A DNA stretch of 63,920 bases, counting the filler. It is 8 parts of 8 records of this genome, joined end to end, with 100 filler letters (N's around TTAATTAATTAA, not from the genome) between each part and the next. Parts side by side here need not be neighbours in the genome. Positions count along the whole stretch, not along the records: positions 43,593 to 50,742 come from SRR31147125_37518; 7 more parts are not named here. One strand, written 5' to 3'. This document shows, piece after piece, positions 3,925-58,648 of this stretch. The notes beneath the pieces were generated by a model. The model saw only the letters and a program-made list of their open reading frames with translations, ran no database searches and was not told the DNA's origin. Made by a program: the position numbers and the translations under genes. How positions within the stretch are numbered: position 1 is the first letter of the stretch; the number at the start of each line of letters is the position of its first letter.

Positions 3925-4596
3925 TTGGCAAAAAACATGAACATCGACATATACAGGCAACTGCATCAGCGCATACTGTTTCTCGAGTATGAGCCGGGTC
4001 AGATTTTAAAAGAACAGGCCTTGGCGAAAGAATTCGGCGTCAGTCGCACGCCTCTTCGCACGGTTCTCTTCCGTCTTGAATGGGAACACCTGATCAAGAT
4101 TTTGCCGCGCACCGGCGTTCAAGTAACGGAACTTGAATTGAACCGAATCATGAATGTTTATCAGGCAAGAATAGAGTTGGAGGAAGTGATCGGGCGTCTG
4201 GCTGCCGAGCGGTTCGCACCGGATCATCTTGAGCGCTTGGATGGGCTGATCGAAGACTGTGACCGTCTATTGGATCACAAAGATCCGAAAGCATTGGCTT
4301 CCGTCGATTTTTCCATTAAGGCACTGTTTCTTGATGCTCTCGGGAATCCTTACTTAAAGGAGATGTCGGACCGTTTATACGCGTTGACCTTTCGCCTGTG
4401 GTATTTCAATATGATAAAAATGAATGCCGAGGCATGGAAGATAGAGCTTAGCACGGTAAGAAAAGAGTTGTCAGATATGTCAACTTTGTTGGCCCAAAAG
4501 AATCCAACAAACGTCGGTATTGCCCGCAAAAAACACCTTCTTGAACACCTGGAACGTATCCGGTCTCAATTTCTCGGATTATCCGGCAACGCCTAA
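3925..4596 (+). CDS. GntR-family regulator (FCD domain)
   Basis: wHTH YEPGQILKEQALAKEFGVSRTPLR followed by an FCD-like helical domain. Confidence 0.9.
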   Translation: MAKNMNIDIYRQLHQRILFLEYEPGQILKEQALAKEFGVSRTPLRTVLFRLEWEHLIKILPRTGVQVTELELNRIMNVYQARIELEEVIGRLAAERFAPDHLERLDGLIEDCDRLLDHKDPKALASVDFSIKALFLDALGNPYLKEMSDRLYALTFRLWYFNMIKMNAEAWKIELSTVRKELSDMSTLLAQKNPTNVGIARKKHLLEHLERIRSQFLGLSGNA

Positions 4597-4800
4597 CGGT
4601 GAAGACGGTTCATGATTTATTTTCAGCAAGATATGATTATGACCGGTTTCATCATGTCTTTCATGGCAAACCTGCATCTTTAGCGGAGTGAAGATAGCTG
4701 ATAGATCACTGGAATCAATTGAGCGCCAAGAAAAGACGATCACATACAACATAGTGTGCCATACCAGAGTGGCCTTTGATTTCGATTCCGGTTTCTACAG

Positions 4801-6203
4801 TCAGGGCGTCGCGTAGGTGGCCAGGATGCTGCCCGTCCGGGTTTCAAGCTCAATCCAGGCCTGGCGCAGTCCGACCAGGGCCAGGGCCAGATTGCCCTGG
4901 GCGGTGGTGAGATCCTTCTGGGCTTCGTTGAGGCGCACCAGGGATCCCTGGCCGGCATTGTATTCCTTTTCCACCAGATCGCGGGTCCGCTGCACGAGAT
5001 CTACGTTTTCCCGCTGCAGGGCCACCTGGGCCTGGGCCGTGGCTACCAGCGCCGCCGAGCTGCGGATATCTGAGGTGGCCGAAAGAATTAACTCCTCCAG
5101 GCGTTTTTCCTGCTCCACCTTCTGCTGGCTGGCCTCTTTGACTTTGGCCTTGGTGTATCCGCCGGAAAACAGGTTGTAGGAGAGACCAAGCTGGATGCGG
5201 TTGCCGAAATCATCCTGCCCGAAATGCATGTCGCCGCTACGTTCACCCTCCAGACTGCCGGCCAGCACCGCCGAGGGATAATAGCCTGACTGGGCGACCT
5301 TGATCTGCGCCTCGGATTGTTTGATCCCCCACCGGGTCTGCTGGATGTCGGGGCGCCAATCCATGGCGTTTCCAATCAGCTCATTCACCGGTGGCGTGGA
5401 TAACTCGGCGGCGGTTTCGGGAGCCAGGCGCGCCAGCCCGACATGATCGGGCAAGCGGGCGTCGGGAACGCCCAGCAAGGCGGCCAGTCCGAACAACGCG
5501 ATCTCGTACCGGTATTCCTCGTTGATGCGGCTGGTCTTGGCTTGATTTTTGCGCACCTGGAAGTTGAGCACATCGCTTAGCGATCCGGTACCCACGCGTT
5601 GGCGGGCTTCGGCATCGGCCAATTGACGCTGATTGAACGCCTCATCGGCCTTGGCGATGGAGATGTTCTCCAAGGCCAATTGGGCCGAAAAATAGGATAG
5701 GGCCACGGCGGAGATCAGAAGCCGCTGGGCATCTTTCAAGGCCGCGGTAATACTTTCCTCGCCATAACGGGCAGACAGATTGAAGAATTTGCGTTGAAAT
5801 CCGTCGAATAGCGTCCAGGACGCAGTCAGATCGGCGTTGTAGTAACCGTCGGGATCATCGATGGTGGCGTTGGGGTTGAAATAGCGGGCAACCGCCAGAT
5901 TCTCTTCATAATCATTTGCCGACATGTCCACCCGCGCGGCGGACGCATTGGCGTCCAACCGGGGCCAATAGGTGGATCGGGCCTGATCCACCTGCGCTTT
6001 GGCTTGCTGAACCCTTGCCAATGCGGCTTCAAGACCGGGATTGCCGGAAAGGGCGATGATCACAGCGGTCTTAAGATCCAACGTCTCAATGGCGACCCAA
6101 TCGGCGGCCGGTCCATTGTCGACGGTCTCTCTGGCGGAAAGCGCCTGTGTATCCGTATCCTGGGCATTGACCGTCAGCGGGCACAGGATGCCCACCCATA
6201 AAA
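4801..6203 (-). CDS. TolC-family outer-membrane efflux protein, 5' truncated by contig end
   Basis: Two OEP repeats (ALSGNPGLEAA...YWPRLD; RPDIQQ...YYPSAVL; YNAGQGSLVRL). Confidence 0.9.
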
Positions 6204-6303
6204 NNNNNNNNNNNNNNNNNNNNNNNNNNNNNNNNNNNNNNNNNNNNTTAATTAATTAANNNNNNNNNNNNNNNNNNNNNNNNNNNNNNNNNNNNNNNNN
6301 NNN
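6204..6303. other. Artificial contig spacer
   Basis: 44 N + TTAATTAATTAA + 44 N; abrupt GC change across it. Confidence 0.99.
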
Positions 6304-6713
6304 AAAACGAAAAATCTTATTTGTCAGATTATAAATCAAAATATATCATTTTAAATGTTGTACCGTCACTAGAGACAACTGTTTGTGATATGCAAACACG
6401 TACAATTAATCAGGAACTTGCAACAAGAGATGATATGACCATATTAACGATAAGCAATGATTTACCAGCATCACAAGCGAAATGGTGTGGTAATTCTGGT
6501 CTATCAAATGTCATCACGCTTAGTGATCATATTGATTTGGATTTTGCAAATAAATATGGGACAAATATTAAAGAATTAAGATTACAAGCACGATCAATCT
6601 TTGTCCTTGATAAAGAACGAAAAATTATATATGTAGAATATGTCGATGAAATGTCTAATCATTTAGATTATGATAAATTACTTGATTTTGTTAAAGAATT
6701 ACCGGAAGACTAA
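6304..6713 (+). CDS. tpx: Thiol peroxidase (atypical 2-Cys Prx), 5' truncated
   Basis: VPSLETTVC, ISNDLPASQAKWC, ARSIFVLD motifs. Confidence 0.9.
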
Positions 6714-14434: not shown

Positions 14435-14534
14435 NNNNNNNNNNNNNNNNNNNNNNNNNNNNNNNNNNNNNNNNNNNNTTAATTAATTAANNNNNNNNNN
14501 NNNNNNNNNNNNNNNNNNNNNNNNNNNNNNNNNN
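14435..14534. other. Artificial contig spacer
   Basis: Same N44-TTAATTAATTAA-N44 linker. Confidence 0.99.
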
Positions 14535-24552: not shown

Positions 24553-24652
24553 NNNNNNNNNNNNNNNNNNNNNNNNNNNNNNNNNNNNNNNNNNNNTTAA
24601 TTAATTAANNNNNNNNNNNNNNNNNNNNNNNNNNNNNNNNNNNNNNNNNNNN
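24553..24652. other. Artificial contig spacer
   Basis: Same linker. Confidence 0.99.
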
Positions 24653-38276: not shown

Positions 38277-38376
38277 NNNNNNNNNNNNNNNNNNNNNNNN
38301 NNNNNNNNNNNNNNNNNNNNTTAATTAATTAANNNNNNNNNNNNNNNNNNNNNNNNNNNNNNNNNNNNNNNNNNNN
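38277..38376. other. Artificial contig spacer
   Basis: Same linker. Confidence 0.99.
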
Positions 38377-43492: not shown

Positions 43493-43592
43493 NNNNNNNN
43501 NNNNNNNNNNNNNNNNNNNNNNNNNNNNNNNNNNNNTTAATTAATTAANNNNNNNNNNNNNNNNNNNNNNNNNNNNNNNNNNNNNNNNNNNN
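43493..43592. other. Artificial contig spacer
   Basis: Same linker. Confidence 0.99.
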
Positions 43593-45179
43593 AAAAAAAG
43601 AGCGATACCCACCATAAAAAAGAAGAGGCAACCGTCATTCACGCAATCGATTGGCAAAAAATCGCCTGTTTAGCGGCGTTTCAAAGCGGATTCACCATCA
43701 TTTCCGGAGGTCCCGGCACCGGCAAAACCACCACCGTCTCCAAACTTCTGGCCCTGCTTTTACATGAAAATCCCACATTGGAAGTGGATCTGGTGGCACC
43801 AACGGGCAAGGCGGCCGATCGTCTGATGAAATCCATTCAATCGGCCAAACTCCACCTGGATATTCCCGACTCTCTGAAAGAGAAACTCCCGGACACCGCC
43901 CGGACCATCCATCGATATCTTGGCTACCTCCCCGGACCGGTGCATTTCGACATCATGCAGGGAATCGGCAAAGCAGCGATCTTCTGGTGGTGGACGAGGC
44001 ATCCATGGTGTCCCTGCCGCTGTTTGCCCATCTGTTCGATGCCTTGAAACCAACGGCCAAGATCATTCTGCTGGGAGACAAGGATCAACTCTCATCTGTT
44101 GAAAACGGATCGGTGTTTGCCGATCTTTCGTCCAATCGATTCGTCAATGTGTTCAGTGGGGATTTCATCCATCGAAACCGTGCGTTGATTCCCGGATTCC
44201 ATCGGTTCGAGGCCGTTCCCAAAGCGGCGGAAACCATTCTGACCAATCGTGTCATTCAGCTGGAGCACAGCTACCGCTTCGGCGTTGACAGCGGCATCGG
44301 CCACCTCAGTTTTCTCATCAACAAGGTTCAATTGGATCCCCCCACCGGCAATGAACCGCTGTTCCCCCAACGCGATCCCTCCCTCTCCCCATCTGTAACA
44401 AGCAAAGGAGCGGACAAAGCCGATATCATGAGGTTCATGAAGACAAGGCGGTTGAATGAAAGAAGCATCTCAAAAATCGTGACTGCAGGAAAGGCAATGC
44501 CCGCGGATCGGCATTTTGAGGACATTGCCTGGTACGATCTCCATGGAGAGGATGCCGAAGCACCCCTTGCTCTTTTGCTTGAAAATGAAGCTAAAAAACG
44601 CTACCGGCCCTATCTGGATGCGTTGGATCGATTTCATAACGATAACAGAGCCGACGTCAAAACCGTTTTGGATGCATTTGAAGCCTTCCGCATCCTATGC
44701 GCCGTCAATCGCGGGCCTTTTGGCGTAGAGCGCGTCAATGCGTGGATGGAAGCCTTGCTGTTCGGCAAAAAACAGGATCTCTTCTATTCCGGTCGTCCGG
44801 TGCTGGTGCAGACAAACGATTACACCCAGCAGCTTTTCAATGGAGATATCGGCGTCATCCTGGAAGAGAAGGGGGAGAACGACGTGCCTGGTTCCGGGGG
44901 GAAGGCGGAACCGTGAGGGGATTTGCCCCGGCCTTTCTACCGGGGCATGTCACCGCCTTTGCCATGACCATCCACAAGAGTCAAGGCAGTGAATTCGATG
45001 GCGTGATGATGCTTCTCCCCAATCGGGATACCCGAATCCTGACCCGGGAGATCATCTACACCGGCATCACCCGGGCCAAAAATGAGATCAGTATTGCCGG
45101 ATCTCAATCGATTTTCGAAAAAGCGATCCTGCGACGAACGGAACGAACATCCGGTTTGCAACAAAAGCTCATATTTTAA
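43593..45179 (+). CDS. recD: RecD (exodeoxyribonuclease V alpha), 5' truncated, two frameshifts (about 43945 and 44875)
   Basis: IDWQK, ISGGPGTGKTT, APTGKAA, VDEASM, LLGDKDQL, FNGDIG, AMTIHKSQGSEF, YTGITRA. Confidence 0.92.
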
Positions 45180-45266
45180 AAAGGCAAGGCAAATTTTGGG
45201 GGGCCATGGCGGGAAATCAACCGGGGATGGGGACTTCCCCGGCGACATGACTGAATGGGGTTGTTT

Positions 45267-46349
45267 CTACAACAGCAATCCGGCCAGGAATGTGGCCACC
45301 AGCCCGGCGGTTAAGAGCCGCATGACCGCTCCGATCACAGCCGCGCCCATGGCCTCGAAATGGGAGAGATCCGTGGCCTCGGACCAGATGGCCGGAATCT
45401 GGCCGAAAATCACGGACAGGGGAAAGCCCGAGGCAGCCAGGACCACGGAGCCGATGACCAGTTCCGGGGAAAGGGTGGCGGCGATGTCCTTCAGCTGGGC
45501 CGTGGCCAGGGTGGGCGATGCCATTATGCTCACGATGCCGGTTTTGGGATCAATGGACAGGGCGGATAGAATGGTGGTAAGTCCGGTCTCAATGGGTTTC
45601 CACACCCCGATATAGTCCAGGGCACCGATCATGGCGAAAATAACCCCCACCGCCGGAATAATGAGCAGAAACAGAAGTTCCGCCCCTTCCCGGGCCGCGC
45701 CGAAAATGGTGGGCAACACGCCTGTATCCGGGGTGAAGCTGGGCATCTCTTCCAGGGGCACGGCCCGGGTGTCCCGCCAAATCACCAGCCTGAGCAGGGC
45801 CGGCACGATAACCAGGGGGGCAAACACGGAGATCAGGATGATGACGAACACCTTGGCCTGGATGGCGGTGAGGGCGATGATGGAAAACATGAAAGTGGAA
45901 AAGGACTGCTGGGATTGGACCATGGTACAGATGGCGATTTTCTGCTCATCCTTGGTGGCACCGGCCTTGACCAGGATGGGTCCGGCGATGCGGCCGGCCG
46001 CATTGATGTCCCCCAGGATATTGTAAACCGAGGGCACCAGGACACTGGAATTGACCTTGATGATCCGGGTCAGGGGCAGAAACAGGCGCATGAGGGCGTC
46101 GGTGAACCCGCATCGTTCCAGGATACGGCCGATGAGTACGCTGATGATGATGGCCACGCCCACCTTGCCCGTGAGAAAGACCTTGACGATGATGGGGTAG
46201 GATTTGTTGAGCATGGCATCAAAAATGCCCGAGATGAACTGGGGGTTGAAAATCAGACCTGCCAGGGAGAGAGCCACCAGGATCAGGCCGGTGATCTCTA
46301 TCTTTCGCAGCCCCTTTTTGGGGATGGTCTGTGTCAGTGCTTCACTCAT
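45267..46349 (-). CDS. Multi-pass membrane protein, probable transporter of nucleoside-recognition (Gate)/SpmAB-like type
   Basis: About 9-10 hydrophobic segments; GRILERCGFTDALMRLFLP resembles a Gate-domain start; last gene of a tight operon. Confidence 0.65.
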   Translation of the reverse strand: MSEALTQTIPKKGLRKIEITGLILVALSLAGLIFNPQFISGIFDAMLNKSYPIIVKVFLTGKVGVAIIISVLIGRILERCGFTDALMRLFLPLTRIIKVNSSVLVPSVYNILGDINAAGRIAGPILVKAGATKDEQKIAICTMVQSQQSFSTFMFSIIALTAIQAKVFVIILISVFAPLVIVPALLRLVIWRDTRAVPLEEMPSFTPDTGVLPTIFGAAREGAELLFLLIIPAVGVIFAMIGALDYIGVWKPIETGLTTILSALSIDPKTGIVSIMASPTLATAQLKDIAATLSPELVIGSVVLAASGFPLSVIFGQIPAIWSEATDLSHFEAMGAAVIGAVMRLLTAGLVATFLAGLLL

Positions 46350-46381
46350 TGTTTTCTCCTTTCACTCAATAATTTGCCGGA

Positions 46382-47389
46382 TTAACCGGTTAAATGGTTT
46401 TCCGCCATGGTTTGGGCATATGCCTGGAGTCTTGGGCTGCCGAATGCATCCAGGGGAATGCTGGTCATTCGTTCCTTGAAAATCACCACCTCCATGTCCG
46501 GCAGCAGGATCTGGATGGCCCGGGCCAGGGGCAGGCCGTTTTCCATGATCTCCAGGGCATGGGAGTTGCCGCAGATGAAATTGAGGCCCAACTCCCCGGC
46601 CTTTTTCACCAAATCATGGTCCGGAAATACCCGGGAGATGGAGGCAAGGACCGTGTCCACATCGGGATGTTCCTGAAAGGCCCGCTCCATATGCACCGGG
46701 GTAAATCCCGTATGCGGGAAGATATGCATGATTTTTGACACGGGGTTGCCCGGCTCACCCGCCAGGATCTTCCCCCGTGTGCAGACGGCGGTCTCTTCCA
46801 GATCCGGGCAGTCTCGGATCTTTTTTTCTTCCGCCAGCAGGGCGGTTTCCATATCCAGTCCCATGAAAGAATCAATGCGGTCCAGCATGTCTTTCAGGGT
46901 GGCCACCCCGTTCAGGGCATTGCCCACAAAGAGAATGTTGCCCGGTATATGGGAGTAGGCAATATGGACAAAGGCAGCATCATGTCCGTGGAGAAAGGCG
47001 ATCCCCGGGTGGCGTCCGTGGAACGCCTCGTGGAGCTCCAGCACGGCCACCTTGTAGAGATCCAGGTAGGTTTTCAAGAGCACTCCCCCGGAATTGGCTG
47101 CATCGGCCACAGGATGATGGGCCACCACGGCATCCACCCCAATGGCTCCGGCCAATTCGATGGCGCTTTCGGTGAGGGTCATCATCACAGCCACCTTTTT
47201 CACCGGTTTTTCAGGATTTCCCACCACAAGCCCGGGCATCTCGGTGACGGCCTTGCCCGGGATATTGGAGGATTTGGTGACCACAAAGGGATGGCTCCCT
47301 GTGACGGCATCGGGTGATGTGATGACCCGACCGCCGGAGATAATGTCCAGGGCCTGGACCAGGTCCTGGATTGTCGTACCTTGTTTCAT
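46382..47389 (-). CDS. NIF3/YbgI-like dinuclear metal-centre protein (divergent)
   Basis: GLVVG...VKKVAV, DAVVAHHP, HEAFH, C-terminal NSHALE. Confidence 0.75.
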   Translation of the reverse strand: MKQGTTIQDLVQALDIISGGRVITSPDAVTGSHPFVVTKSSNIPGKAVTEMPGLVVGNPEKPVKKVAVMMTLTESAIELAGAIGVDAVVAHHPVADAANSGGVLLKTYLDLYKVAVLELHEAFHGRHPGIAFLHGHDAAFVHIAYSHIPGNILFVGNALNGVATLKDMLDRIDSFMGLDMETALLAEEKKIRDCPDLEETAVCTRGKILAGEPGNPVSKIMHIFPHTGFTPVHMERAFQEHPDVDTVLASISRVFPDHDLVKKAGELGLNFICGNSHALEIMENGLPLARAIQILLPDMEVVIFKERMTSIPLDAFGSPRLQAYAQTMAENHLTG

Positions 47390-47413
47390 TTGCTGCCTCC
47401 TTGGAATCTTAGG

Positions 47414-48682
47414 TTAATCAAATATTCGGGCCATTCCTGCTGCGGATACCCTCTTTCGTATGGCCTCGATGTCAGTGGTATACAAGTTCTTTTGCCGGAT
47501 CCGATCAAAAAGGACGGAGCCGGAAAAGGTAAATTTCTGATCCAGCCGGCCCTTGTCCATCATCTGTGACCGGACATGGGAAACGGCATCTCCCACCACC
47601 AGGCTCTCGGGCAGGGTAATGCCCCCCTTGTCATTGGCCCGGACCGCATTGAAACCGGCCAGGGTGCCGGTGCAGACGGCTTCGGTATGGCCCACCAGAA
47701 GTCCGGCCTTTTCACCGGCGCAGAACAAATTGTCCACCCCGTCCACCTTGAGCCGGTCATCCCTGGGGGACATGGCCAGGAAGCGGATGGAATTGCCTGT
47801 CCCGCCACTGTAAGGGTCTTCATACCGTGCCGCTTCAAGGCCTGGGATCTGTCGTAATATTTCCAGGGGAAAAAACGGGGTCATGAGCTTGGCATGGCCG
47901 GTATCGAGCAGAATCACATTTTCGGAAAACGCCCTGGAGGCATACTGCTGACACGCCTTCACGGCCAGTTTTCCACGGCTCTGCAGGGCCGTGGGCACGG
48001 GTAGCACGGCCACGCCCGTGGTGGTGAGCCGGTCCCGGATTTCCGGGGATAGTGAGCCCTTGTGGAGCTTGCAGGAGCCGCTCATGGCCCCCACCTGACC
48101 CGGCCGGGTTCCGGTCATCTCGGCAATCCCGGCTTTGGCTGCCACGCTCACCCGACCACCAAAGGTGTGACAGCGCAGGATGCACATGGCGCACCCCTTT
48201 CCGTGCCTGTTACACAGGGCAGGCGGGCCTGCCGTACCTGTGGTGTCGATGAATGCGTCGCCTGCCAGTTCAAAGGGAACTTGACCGCTCTTTCCCGTCA
48301 CCGTCTCCATCCGGGCACCGGCCATGGTCACATCCGTAATTCTGCTGTTCAGCATCAGGGTCACTCCCTTGCTCACCAGCAGGGACCGCACTGCCGGTTC
48401 CACGGTTGAGACGTTGTAAAGGCAGGCATGGCTGTGGCCGGGAAAATCAATATTTTTGTGGACCAAGTGGGCATCGATGGTCAAAAAGAGGTCTCCCCCG
48501 CCCATGGCGATCATCTCTTCGGTGGCAGTGAACCGGGCATTGTTCCGCATGATCCCCCCCACAAGCCCTGTCCCCAACAGCATGTCCGTCCGTTCCACCA
48601 GGAAGACCTTGGCCCCCTGTTTCCTTGCTTCCAGGGCAGCGGCACAACCTGCCCAGCCGCCGCCGATTACCACGATATTCAT
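47414..48682 (-). CDS. GidA/TrmFO-family FAD-dependent oxidoreductase with a Cys cluster
   Basis: VIGGGWAGCAAA; NLFCAGEKAG..GHTEA..TGTLAGFNA matches the MnmG/TrmFO AGQ..G..GY.EA...G..AG.NA motif; CNRHGKGCAMCILRC. Confidence 0.8.
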   Translation of the reverse strand: MNIVVIGGGWAGCAAALEARKQGAKVFLVERTDMLLGTGLVGGIMRNNARFTATEEMIAMGGGDLFLTIDAHLVHKNIDFPGHSHACLYNVSTVEPAVRSLLVSKGVTLMLNSRITDVTMAGARMETVTGKSGQVPFELAGDAFIDTTGTAGPPALCNRHGKGCAMCILRCHTFGGRVSVAAKAGIAEMTGTRPGQVGAMSGSCKLHKGSLSPEIRDRLTTTGVAVLPVPTALQSRGKLAVKACQQYASRAFSENVILLDTGHAKLMTPFFPLEILRQIPGLEAARYEDPYSGGTGNSIRFLAMSPRDDRLKVDGVDNLFCAGEKAGLLVGHTEAVCTGTLAGFNAVRANDKGGITLPESLVVGDAVSHVRSQMMDKGRLDQKFTFSGSVLFDRIRQKNLYTTDIEAIRKRVSAAGMARIFD

Positions 48683-48699
48683 TTATCATCCTCTCTTTT

Positions 48700-50448
48700 T
48701 TATATCAGGGCGGTTTCAGCCCTTGATGTTGCTCTGTTTTTTCTGATTCGGGCCTGCCAGGACATCACCGGCGGCAGTTCCGTCACTTCGGACTCGGTGA
48801 TCACATCCAGAAATACCGGTCCCTGGAATGAAAACGCCGCCTCCAATGCCGGTTCCAGTTCATCCGGGGAGGCCACCTTGTGGGCGGCCATGCCGAATCC
48901 TCTAGCCACCAGCGACGGATCATGGCTGTTGAAATCCACGGAGAAAAACTTGTTGTCCGTATGGAGGGCCTGCAGGGCCTTGATCCAGCCGAAACAACTG
49001 TTGTTGAAATGAATGAGTACGGCAGGGATGTTCAGGCGAACCAGGGTTTCCAGCTCGCCGGCGGACATCCCCAGGGATCCGTCCCCGAACAGGCCCACCA
49101 GCCGGGCATCGGGATTGGCAAAATGGGCGCCCACAAGGCCCGGAACGGCATAGCCCAGGCCACCGAAGGCCCTTGGGATGATAAAGGTGGAATCTTTGCC
49201 GGAAAGCCTTAAATACCGGGTGATATGCGGGGTGGGTGTACCGGCGTCGGCAATGACGATGGAGGGCCGGTCCAGAAACCGGTTCAGGGCGCAGATCAAT
49301 CGCTGGGGCTTGATGGGAGAGGCGGAAGAGTTGAGTTTTTCCCGGGACGCTTCCCAGAATGCCTTACGATCCCGGTTCAAGGAAGCCACCCAAGGAGCCC
49401 GGGATTCAGGCACACCTGCCTTTTTAAGGGCTTGATCCGCCAGGATGTTGAGATCCCGAAGTATCAGCCGTGCGTCTCCGGCCAGGCTGAGGTGGTTGGC
49501 AGTATTGTTACCGAGCATTTCCGGGTCCAGATCCACCTGGAGGATCTGGCGTAAAGGATCATAGGCCGGCAGGGTCCAGTTCACTGATGAGACAGAGCCG
49601 ATCTTGCACCCCAGGTAAAAGAGGGTGTCGCTCTCTTCCACGGCCCGGACGGCATGGGGGTGAAATCCATTGTCACCGATAACGCCCAGGGCCAATTCAT
49701 GGTGGTCCGGCAGGATACCCTGGCCGGATATGGTGGTGACCACGGGAATCGCCAGCAATTCGCACAGGGTCAGAATCTCATTTTGAGCCTGTGCATGCTT
49801 GGCTCCGCCCCCGGCCACGATCACGGGTTTTTTTGCAGTCATCAGGGAGGCCGCGATGGCCTCCAGCCCCTCACGGCTGCCCCGGGTCCTGAAGGCGGGA
49901 TAGGTCCGGCACTGGGACTCGGCATACAGGCAGCGCTCTTCGGCTTCCCACTTATGCTTGAAGATTTCCTGGGGGATGCAGAGATGGACGGCACCGGGCC
50001 GCCCTGTGGTGGCGATCCTGAAGGCCCTGCGGATAATCTCCGGGATTCGCGTCCCGTCCTTGACCAGGCAGGACCATTTGGTCACAGGTTCAAACAGACG
50101 CTCGCAGTCCAGTTCCGTTATGGTCTTTTTGTCCTCCCCGCTGATGGGGATGTCATTGGTGATCAGAATCACCGGTACGGAGGAGGCATCTGCCTCGGCA
50201 ATGCCGGGAATGGCATAGAGGGCACCTGCCCCGCTGGGGCATTCGCAGATCCCGGGTTTATGGGAAACCCGGGCATAGGCATCTGCCATGAACCCGGCGC
50301 TGCGTTCGTCCCGGGCCATGACATGGCGGATGCTCCCGGCATCGTGGAGGGATTCGTACAGGGGAATGCTGGTATCTCCGGGCACCCCGAAGATCACCCG
50401 GACATCGTAAAGGGAGAGCATCTTGACGATCAAATCAGAACTTTTCAT
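48700..50448 (-). CDS. ThDP-dependent enzyme, acetolactate synthase large-subunit superfamily
   Basis: FGVPG, RDERSAGFMADAYAR, AFRIA.TGRPGAVHL, GDGSLGM...FNN ThDP motif. Confidence 0.9.
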   Translation of the reverse strand: MKSSDLIVKMLSLYDVRVIFGVPGDTSIPLYESLHDAGSIRHVMARDERSAGFMADAYARVSHKPGICECPSGAGALYAIPGIAEADASSVPVILITNDIPISGEDKKTITELDCERLFEPVTKWSCLVKDGTRIPEIIRRAFRIATTGRPGAVHLCIPQEIFKHKWEAEERCLYAESQCRTYPAFRTRGSREGLEAIAASLMTAKKPVIVAGGGAKHAQAQNEILTLCELLAIPVVTTISGQGILPDHHELALGVIGDNGFHPHAVRAVEESDTLFYLGCKIGSVSSVNWTLPAYDPLRQILQVDLDPEMLGNNTANHLSLAGDARLILRDLNILADQALKKAGVPESRAPWVASLNRDRKAFWEASREKLNSSASPIKPQRLICALNRFLDRPSIVIADAGTPTPHITRYLRLSGKDSTFIIPRAFGGLGYAVPGLVGAHFANPDARLVGLFGDGSLGMSAGELETLVRLNIPAVLIHFNNSCFGWIKALQALHTDNKFFSVDFNSHDPSLVARGFGMAAHKVASPDELEPALEAAFSFQGPVFLDVITESEVTELPPVMSWQARIRKNRATSRAETALI

Positions 50449-50504
50449 ATTTGTTTCCAGACCGGCACCGACTATTCGGCGTCCGTATGCTTTTAATTAA
50501 AAAA

Positions 50505-50530
50505 TATTAAAACAACATATTGTTTTAATA
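50505..50530. promoter_or_regulatory. Perfect 11-bp-arm palindrome upstream of the ThDP operon (probable operator)
   Basis: TATTAAAACAA-cata-TTGTTTTAATA, about 57 bp upstream of ATG 50448. Confidence 0.6.
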
Positions 50531-50742
50531 GTAGATTTATTTTTTGTATATTTGGAATATTTAAATTTAATTAAATTTGAAAAAAAATAATCAAATCACT
50601 CTCTTCTTGTCAAGTATTTTTTTACACTCAATTTAAAATTATAAAATATAATAATTATTTTAAAATTATTTCAAGTAGTTAAAAAATAGCGAATTTATTT
50701 AGTAAAAATAAAACTGAGATAAAATTTAACTAAATTCAAAAA

Positions 50743-50842
50743 NNNNNNNNNNNNNNNNNNNNNNNNNNNNNNNNNNNNNNNNNNNNTTAATTAATTAANN
50801 NNNNNNNNNNNNNNNNNNNNNNNNNNNNNNNNNNNNNNNNNN
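50743..50842. other. Artificial contig spacer
   Basis: Same linker. Confidence 0.99.
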
Positions 50843-58548: not shown

Positions 58549-58648
58549 NNNNNNNNNNNNNNNNNNNNNNNNNNNNNNNNNNNNNNNNNNNNTTAATTAA
58601 TTAANNNNNNNNNNNNNNNNNNNNNNNNNNNNNNNNNNNNNNNNNNNN
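58549..58648. other. Artificial contig spacer
   Basis: Same linker. Confidence 0.99.

Follow-up and report, generated by a model that had tools for sequence, protein, structure and literature searches.

Gene organization and conservation of the operon

The operon described here encodes a thiamine diphosphate (ThDP)-dependent enzyme, a flavoprotein related in fold to a tRNA-modifying enzyme, a NIF3-like protein and a membrane protein. It lies in a window of 63,920 nucleotides that is made of eight contigs joined end to end. The contig that carries it (SRR31147125_37518, positions 43593-50742, 7,150 bp, G+C 0.555) contains a recD-like gene on the plus strand and the four operon genes on the minus strand, and nothing more. 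In the order of transcription, gene 1 (48700..50448, 582 amino acids (aa)) encodes a ThDP-dependent enzyme of the acetolactate synthase (ALS)/pyruvate oxidase (POX) superfamily with three thiamine pyrophosphate (TPP) Pfam domains. Gene 2 (47414..48682, 422 aa) encodes a flavin adenine dinucleotide (FAD) oxidoreductase with the GidA/MnmG fold, recognized by the Pfam family GIDA and by its model. Gene 3 (46382..47389, 335 aa) encodes a NIF3/DUF34-fold protein, recognized by its model and by a short PF01784 match, and gene 4 (45267..46349, 360 aa) a polytopic membrane protein, a probable permease, which is SpmB/Gate-like by the labels of its relatives only. All four open reading frames are intact, the gaps between them are 17, 24 and 32 bp, and GGAGG-like, Shine-Dalgarno-like sites precede genes 2-4. 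The four co-oriented, closely spaced genes of the initial annotation are therefore present as it had described them, and the 7,150-bp contig has no ilv gene or ALS small subunit, which it had also remarked.

The wider gene context has been taken from the loci (L numbers) and genomes (G numbers) of relatives. The gene order, ThDP enzyme, flavoprotein, NIF3-like protein and membrane protein, is kept in five other complete loci: L002, from a metagenome-assembled genome of Desulfotignum; L132, from a complete 6.06-Mb genome; L133; and L178 and L179, which are metagenome contigs. Genes 1 and 2 are also present in L001, where the contig then ends. The homologues are thus co-located elsewhere, in Desulfobacteria-type relatives, in keeping with the dedicated unit that had been proposed. 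By these comparisons the four genes are a real and conserved operon, and probably a regulated one. Of 201 genomes sampled from the class of G001, 12 have the flavoprotein and three the NIF3-like protein, and all three of the latter carry the operon. Since so few genomes of this class have it, the operon is an accessory unit. The three operon-bearing genomes all have a true MnmG (820-835 bits) and a standard YbgI elsewhere, and two of them, G503 and G565, have a true IlvB (805-823 bits). This shows the products of genes 1-3 to be extra paralogues beside the housekeeping IlvB, MnmG and YbgI.

The ThDP enzyme

The three TPP domains of the gene 1 protein, N-terminal (PF02776), central (PF00205) and C-terminal (PF02775), all score well above their cut-offs. 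The enzyme shares with IlvB and the wider ALS/POX family the three-domain architecture, an alignment over the full length and the GDG...NN ThDP motif. Unlike IlvB, it has neither a small subunit nor ilv genes beside it; around the operon in L132 and L133, the genes encode a regulator, transporters, EutBC and a peptidase. Of the 25 best NCBIfam models shown, not one scores the enzyme as high as its own cut-off. The IlvB model TIGR00118 gives 359.6 bits versus a cut-off of 538.35 (385-393 bits for the operon copies in G001, G503 and G565), the Gcl model 271 versus 791, the AruI-like model 274 versus 500, and the Xsc model NF005713, which ranks below the ALS models, 247.4 versus 620. In a quick tree of all 28 collected ThDP sequences, with every row kept and the tree search unfinished, the window protein belongs to a clade of 17 rows (SH-aLRT 100) that is well separated from true IlvB and, unlike IlvB, groups with orthologues from catabolic operons. 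By score and by tree, the enzyme has its own orthologue group and is not an ordinary IlvB, which supports the initial annotation.

The closest solved relatives among PDB sequences, at about 220-237 bits, include BbmA, acetolactate synthases and glyoxylate carboligase. The presence of carboligases in this group is what would be expected of a biosynthetic unit, in which a ThDP carboligase makes an acyloin for a secondary product. That alternative, together with an incidental juxtaposition of genes that share no function, is the least probable of those considered here and very improbable in itself. The gene order is conserved in six loci with a common regulator and candidate operator, catabolic units are where transporters and GntR/FCD regulators are typically found, and no tailoring or export genes recur.

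The GidA-fold flavoprotein

The gene 2 protein matches the Pfam families GIDA (108 bits) and FAD_oxidored. Its scores with the models of the tRNA-modifying enzymes are far below the cut-offs: 36 bits versus 525 for the MnmG model TIGR00136, at profile positions 316-389 only, and 25.7 versus 428.65 and 35.3 versus 262 bits for the TrmFO models TIGR00137 and NF003739. The AlphaFold model has a mean predicted local distance difference test (pLDDT) score of 84.6, and its top Foldseek matches are all GidA/MnmG structures (TMq 0.58-0.68, the best 0.64-0.68, probability 1.00), while TrmFO structures match less well (TMq 0.48-0.49). The ESM Atlas returned generic names only. Relatives are numerous, with more than 7,700 at E<=0.001 among 7,997 candidates scored, and the 120 best listed are 63-83% identical to the window protein.

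The flavoprotein has the FAD-domain and insertion-domain fold of MnmG/GidA. It differs from MnmG in its length, 422 aa compared with about 620-650, in its lack of the helical C-terminal domain that binds tRNA and MnmE, and in an identity of only about 15-17%. Two further features set it apart from both MnmG and TrmFO: an invariant four-cysteine motif, C157-x6-C164-x2-C167-x3-C171, present in 36/36 aligned flavoproteins, and a gene context of transporters and catabolic genes. Residues C13, C204 and C244 and a G-H-x-H motif are also invariant. The four-cysteine motif is a putative Fe-S site, probably for a [4Fe-4S] cluster. Of the Fe-S/FAD paralogue named in the initial annotation, the GidA/FAD part is thus confirmed by fold and Pfam match, and the Fe-S part is read from the invariant motif. 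Since the MnmG fold is here without its tRNA-related C-terminus and in catabolic company, a repurposed tRNA-modifying fold, as had been suggested, is a fair reading.

The NIF3-like protein

The Pfam family PF01784 (DUF34_NIF3) matches the gene 3 protein with 31 bits versus a cut-off of 23.4, and only over the 44 residues 51-94; TIGR00486 gives 35.3 bits versus 130.55. Despite this short match, the NIF3-like identity proposed at first holds for the model (pLDDT 87.5), whose listed structure matches through rank 19 are all of the NIF3 family, except 3rxy, with TMt 0.42-0.70. They include YbgI, HcgD, XynX and SA1388. About 900 relatives are found at E<=0.001.

The protein has the NIF3/DUF34 fold and keeps the H-H-P motif of the family at H91-H92. 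It is distinguished from the family by its 335-aa length with added elements and by its ties to a membrane protein and a flavoprotein. YbgI has five metal ligands. In 27 NIF3-like sequences the residues H91, H92, H120, H124, H127, H134, H136, H222, H226, H277 and E280 are invariant, a number of histidines above that of the YbgI ligands, which suggests a metal site richer than the family standard. Among them, H91, H92, H277 and E280 correspond to the candidate metal-site residues conserved in the family. The DUF34 family is a long-standing conserved unknown and has been proposed to act as a metal chaperone or insertase (PMC8469502). The available part of that review does not mention the gene 3 subgroup, which its supplementary tables may list (PMC8469502).

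The membrane protein

The gene 4 protein has about 660 relatives at E<=0.001. It resembles the Gate proteins (the FeoB core, NupC and SpmA/SpmB) in size and polytopic nature, and differs from them in having no G-domain and no Pfam match at E<=10, PF07670 included. NCBIfam also gives no match, and a profile of 25 relatives finds no PDB sequence. A precomputed PF07670 match is present in 18/120 listed relatives, and Gate or SpmB also appears in some source names. The Gate label is therefore weak for the window protein, and the Gate type given in the initial annotation did not hold up. A complex prediction for the membrane protein with the NIF3-like protein scored 0.00, which gives no verdict either way.

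The upstream region and the regulator

A promoter-like site, TTGACA-18 nt-TATTTT, was located upstream of gene 1 by a consensus scan (50584..50613, minus strand). The 16-bp perfect palindrome AAATTTAATTAAATTT (50563..50578) is just downstream of it, the position expected of a repressor operator. A second, imperfect copy with two mismatches is at the contig edge (50722..50737), which makes two matches with at most two mismatches in the window versus 0.10 expected. AAATTTAATTAAATTT is found exactly in the window, L001, L132 and L133, whereas the L002 copy has one change; L001 has it twice, one copy nearer its regulator gene. In an alignment of five loci, a CTTGAC element is invariant, and so is the palindrome core ATTTAATTAAATTT about 30 nt downstream of it, which makes up 14 of the 16 palindrome positions. 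The palindrome at the head of the operon that had been noticed before (50505..50530) is real, with 11-nt arms at 50505-50515 and 50520-50530, 100% complementary, and a 4-nt spacer. It is only loosely kept in relatives, as AACAA...TTGTT-like repeats, and the AAATTTAATTAAATTT element further upstream is the better conserved of the two.

A divergent GntR/FCD regulator gene is present upstream of the operon in L001, L002, L132, L133, L178 and L179. The operon contig stops in the AT-rich region upstream of gene 1, so that the regulator gene of the relatives would be cut off there. The possibility that this AT-rich region is an assembly chimera was ruled out: the region is conserved in four other loci, and since its AT-richness is common to all of them it is no assembly artefact. 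AAATTTAATTAAATTT is a candidate operator of the GntR/FCD regulator known from these relatives, whose ligand would probably be the pathway substrate or an early product of it, the first intermediate. No Rfam family reached its gathering score in 20 Bacillota NIF3 loci, and the operon contig gave only sub-threshold, chance-level matches and no riboswitch.

Two modules

The operon joins two modules, the ThDP enzyme with the flavoprotein and the NIF3 protein with the membrane protein, which occur apart elsewhere. This fusion is new relative to the initial annotation. The ThDP and flavoprotein genes lie side by side in 10 of 80 genome loci, from Desulfobacterota and Burkholderiales/Rhodocyclaceae (Betaproteobacteria), and 3 kb apart in one Chloroflexi locus. 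In Bacillota, the NIF3-like gene has the membrane-protein gene next to it in 19 of 20 loci. The flavoprotein, which is found in 113/401 sampled Bacillota genomes, is present in 24/28 of those with the NIF3-like protein versus 89/373 of those without it (Fisher p = 7e-11, with kinship ignored). Among 80 metagenome loci found by a NIF3 profile, 29 have it alongside the NIF3-like gene, with at least six different layouts. The flavoprotein, the NIF3 protein and the membrane protein are thus linked across phyla, and the link between the modules is strong.

The Bacillota NIF3-membrane pair, whose carriers include Bacillaceae such as Cytobacillus and Siminovitchia, has companions of its own. An MpsC-like (PF10057) gene is upstream in 16/20 loci and a 162-aa gene that belongs to no family is alongside in 18/20. 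The MpsC-like, NIF3, membrane-protein and 162-aa genes form a stand-alone module in L112-L130 (for example, L112 8994-12363) and also in 31/80 metagenome loci. The metagenome contigs that share a FAD-NIF3-membrane layout (L227-L257; for example, L242 6711-10100) are without the ThDP enzyme, and several are labelled as gut samples.

This distribution bears on an alternative in which genes 3 and 4 stand outside the pathway chemistry: a metal-ion importer resembling the FeoB core and a NIF3 metal chaperone would supply or mature a metallo-flavoenzyme. The NIF3 fold, with HcgD among the matches and about ten invariant histidines, is in line with it, and so are the invariant four-cysteine and G-H-x-H motifs of the flavoprotein and the chaperone or insertase role proposed for DUF34 (PMC8469502). 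Most genomes with the flavoprotein, however, lack the pair (89/113 in Bacillota and 9/12 in the class of G001), which implies that the pair is not needed for maturation. The pair also occupies the place that substrate transporters have in other loci, and no metal-responsive regulator or riboswitch was seen. Such a role is quite unlikely.

Neighbouring genes and a sister operon

The most telling gene context is that of ThDP orthologues in L144, L145 and L147. These are 61-62% identical to the window enzyme, fall inside the same 17-row clade and are sister to the five-row group of the window protein (support 88). All three loci have a divergent GntR/FCD gene whose product is about 40% identical to that of L002; L147, a 4.4-kb contig, shows nothing beyond the ThDP gene, this regulator and a TAXI gene that is cut. 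In L144 and L145 (for example, L145 886-11678) are TAXI-TRAP genes (TRAP, tripartite ATP-independent periplasmic), a racemase-like gene that is 35-37% identical to that of Lachnospiraceae-type loci, and, where the GidA-like gene would be, genes for a heteromeric amine dehydrogenase; a POR alpha-like gene is further present in L145. The amine dehydrogenase consists of a DAO-family subunit and a larger subunit, whose best solved relatives are chains B and A of 1Y56, followed by glycine, sarcosine and dimethylglycine oxidases. From the gene order, a classical amine-oxidising flavoenzyme and a GidA-fold protein would be alternative partners of an orthologous ThDP enzyme. This displacement, the best single clue, suggests an amine-bearing or similar carbon as the site of oxidation by the GidA-fold protein, and the oxo product as the likely substrate of the ThDP enzyme.

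Transporters are frequent around the flavoprotein gene in 80 genome loci. A 460-aa ion-transporter-like permease resembling the GntP/DcuC/CitMHS carriers is present in 30/80 loci, and the ESM Atlas gave it ion-transporter-type look-alikes, which are a lead only. Other loci have an Opp/Nik-type ATP-binding cassette (ABC) transporter with a xylose-isomerase-like TIM protein, or MFS, SSF, NMT1-type ABC or TRAP transporters. GntR/FCD regulators are found at 23 + 6 of the 80 loci. Lachnospiraceae-type loci have a PucR regulator, an Asp/Glu/hydantoin-racemase-like gene, two D-2-hydroxyacid dehydrogenases, an AEC-type carrier and a class I/II aminotransferase, and L208 has this full set together with the NIF3, membrane-protein and 162-aa genes on one contig. 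The operon in L133 is neighboured by a TRAP transporter, an M42 peptidase and a B12-binding protein. In all, the neighbours point to amino, oxo and hydroxy acids as candidate substrates rather than to nucleobases.

Some of these genes could also indicate catabolism or salvage of an N-heterocycle, in which the flavoprotein would reduce a pyrimidine-, nicotinate- or pterin-like ring, the NIF3 protein would open it hydrolytically and the ThDP enzyme would handle the oxo acid. MnmG and TrmFO, the fold relatives of the flavoprotein, act on uracil C5. PucR regulators and hydantoin-racemase-like genes occur in the Lachnospiraceae-type loci, a xanthine-dehydrogenase-type gene adjoins the flavoprotein in 3/80 loci (including L058, which has the ThDP enzyme), and amidase and amidohydrolase genes are neighbours in L146 and L029. 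One carrier is labelled Desulfocicer niacini by its source, and a nucleoside-recognition Gate label is attached to some relatives of the membrane protein. Against these stand the infrequency of all such neighbours compared with amino, oxo and hydroxy-acid genes, the lack of a recurring nucleoside phosphorylase, hydrolase or kinase, the failure of the Gate label for the window membrane protein, and the absence of a riboswitch upstream in the 20 Bacillota loci or in the operon contig. An N-heterocycle is thus an unlikely substrate, and the nucleobase, nucleoside or pterin-like compound first suggested has only the thin support of PucR, the three xanthine-dehydrogenase-type neighbours and the hydantoin-racemase-like gene.

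An organosulfonate route is comparably improbable. On the pattern of taurine dehydrogenase with Xsc, the flavoprotein would oxidise a sulfonate that bears an amino or hydroxy group, such as those of the taurine, cysteate, isethionate or sulfolactate type. The ThDP enzyme would free sulfite or decarboxylate a sulfo-oxo acid, and the sulfite would be respired, exported or oxidised. A TauE/SafE-family gene follows the ThDP-flavoprotein pair in L022, L023, L024 and L029, four of the five Betaproteobacteria loci with downstream sequence. Since the flavoproteins of these four close relatives are 74-82% identical, they amount to one or two observations, and the family concerned, PF01925, is a broad one. 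In L003 the pair has genes for a sulfite-oxidase-type Mo enzyme and an MFS transporter on its flanks, an NMT1/TauA-like binding protein and an ABC ATPase (with the taurine ATPase among its best NCBIfam matches) are beside the NIF3 and flavoprotein genes in L006, and many carriers are labelled Desulfobacterales. The Xsc model, however, scores the ThDP enzyme at well under half its cut-off and under the ALS models, the Bacillota and gut loci with the ThDP-less trio showed no sulfonate-specific genes, and racemase and 2-hydroxyacid dehydrogenase neighbours need no sulfonate.

Other surroundings were seen at single loci or groups of loci. In L132, the operon is followed after 400 bp by eutB and eutC (ethanolamine ammonia-lyase, 4554-6709), which are on its strand. 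In the Rhodocyclaceae loci L029 (934-11060) and L057 (348-5387), Rnf complex genes are ahead of the ThDP-flavoprotein pair; L029 also has a GAPDH-like gene ahead of the pair and TauE/SafE and AEC-type carrier genes after it. In Bacillota with the NIF3 pair, the best flavoprotein copy is inside a conserved cluster in 16/20 loci (L148-L167; for example, L148 7336-17100), in the order DUF6917, RidA, a 488-aa pyridoxal phosphate (PLP) protein, flavoprotein, in some cases the permease, GntR, a 91-aa protein, a 605-aa B12-binding protein, a KamB-like reactivase, a 321-aa protein and a second flavoprotein. This cluster looks like an undescribed PLP/B12 pathway for an amino acid. As a common denominator of the NIF3-membrane pair it was rejected, since searches of the three operon-bearing genomes gave no PLP protein and matched the B12 protein only by its generic B12-binding domain. 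Likewise, the B12-binding domain is the sole likeness between the B12-binding proteins of L133 and L028.

Other features of the window

The eight contigs of the window are joined by seven linkers, each an N-run, TTAATTAATTAA and a second N-run, at 6204-6303, 14435-14534, 24553-24652, 38277-38376, 43493-43592, 50743-50842 and 58549-58648. Genes with a linker between them are not neighbours, and since the G+C of the pieces spans 0.31 to 0.56, more than one source organism may be represented. The recD-like helicase gene on the operon contig (43594-45179, plus strand) can be read only with two frame shifts, near 43970 and near 44900. It retains the P-loop, DEAS and TIHKSQGSEF motifs and is a pseudogene or bears assembly errors.

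Proposed pathway

The operon is probably a catabolic unit; it is assembled from known superfamilies and holds an uncharacterised, widespread enzyme trio. The favoured reading, with a probability of about 0.45, is that an amino-acid-like acid is taken up and oxidised under regulation and that the ThDP enzyme then cleaves the oxo product, in an operon that appears to be controlled by a repressor and built by the joining of two conserved modules. The substrate would be imported by the membrane protein. The GidA-fold FAD protein, probably with a [4Fe-4S] cluster on its four-cysteine loop, would then dehydrogenate a C-N or C-OH carbon to give an imino or 2-oxo acid, or an aldehyde, and the ThDP enzyme would decarboxylate or cleave the oxo product. 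The His-rich NIF3 protein could carry out a metal-dependent step on the same substrate or serve the permease.

Pathways in which an amine or D-amino-acid dehydrogenase is followed by a ThDP enzyme are DauA/AruI for arginine and TauXY/Xsc for taurine. The proposed pathway shares with them the order of a flavin dehydrogenation and a ThDP step, and in L144 and L145 an orthologous ThDP enzyme is paired with a DAO-type amine dehydrogenase. It differs in that the window flavoenzyme has another fold and the ThDP enzyme is below the AruI-like and Xsc cut-offs. The literature searched contains no described pathway for the four-gene unit, in agreement with the initial annotation, which could match it to none. 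A preprint on riboflavin degradation was considered as a match and set aside, as the part of it available has neither NIF3 nor GidA genes.

Several observations weigh against uptake and oxidation of an amino-acid-like acid by this set of four proteins. The four-cysteine loop, whose motif is what suggests the Fe-S cluster, is modelled at pLDDT < 50. In Bacillota, the flavoprotein is within the fetched 20 kb of the NIF3-membrane pair in only 1/20 loci. About 23 of the 29 metagenome loci with adjacent flavoprotein and NIF3-like genes share the FAD-NIF3-membrane layout and probably represent one or few lineages. The NIF3-like gene is beside the flavoprotein with no Gate-like gene in L005, L006 and L069, and the flavoprotein occurs without the NIF3-membrane pair in the 89 Bacillota genomes and in the 9/12 carriers in the class of G001 mentioned above; the roles of genes 3 and 4 are for these reasons the weakest steps. 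The contexts of the flavoprotein are also heterogeneous, so that its members may differ in substrate or be a general redox partner. The substrate class itself is read from gene context. As to the initial annotation as a whole, what it observed is confirmed, and its interpretation is supported in part, the substrate guess, the Gate label and a plain Fe-S assignment being the parts that are not supported as they stood.

A wider proposal is held more tentatively than the pathway. In it, a tRNA-modification fold that acquired a four-cysteine iron-sulfur loop would have become a small-molecule oxidoreductase that works with a His-rich NIF3 metalloprotein and a permease dedicated to it. The three would form an undescribed, widespread catabolic trio, coupled in Desulfobacteria to the ThDP enzyme as a new lyase or decarboxylase.

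Biological significance

Large families account for three of the four proteins, and in these families no function is assigned to members of this type. The tight tie to a specific flavoenzyme and a permease gives the NIF3/DUF34 protein a testable setting. If the substrate were a sulfonate or an N-heterocycle, the operon would represent a new route in anaerobic sulfur turnover or in vitamin and nucleobase turnover in sediments and guts. If the trio is indeed a catabolic unit, this would be the first defined metabolic role for the NIF3/DUF34 family.

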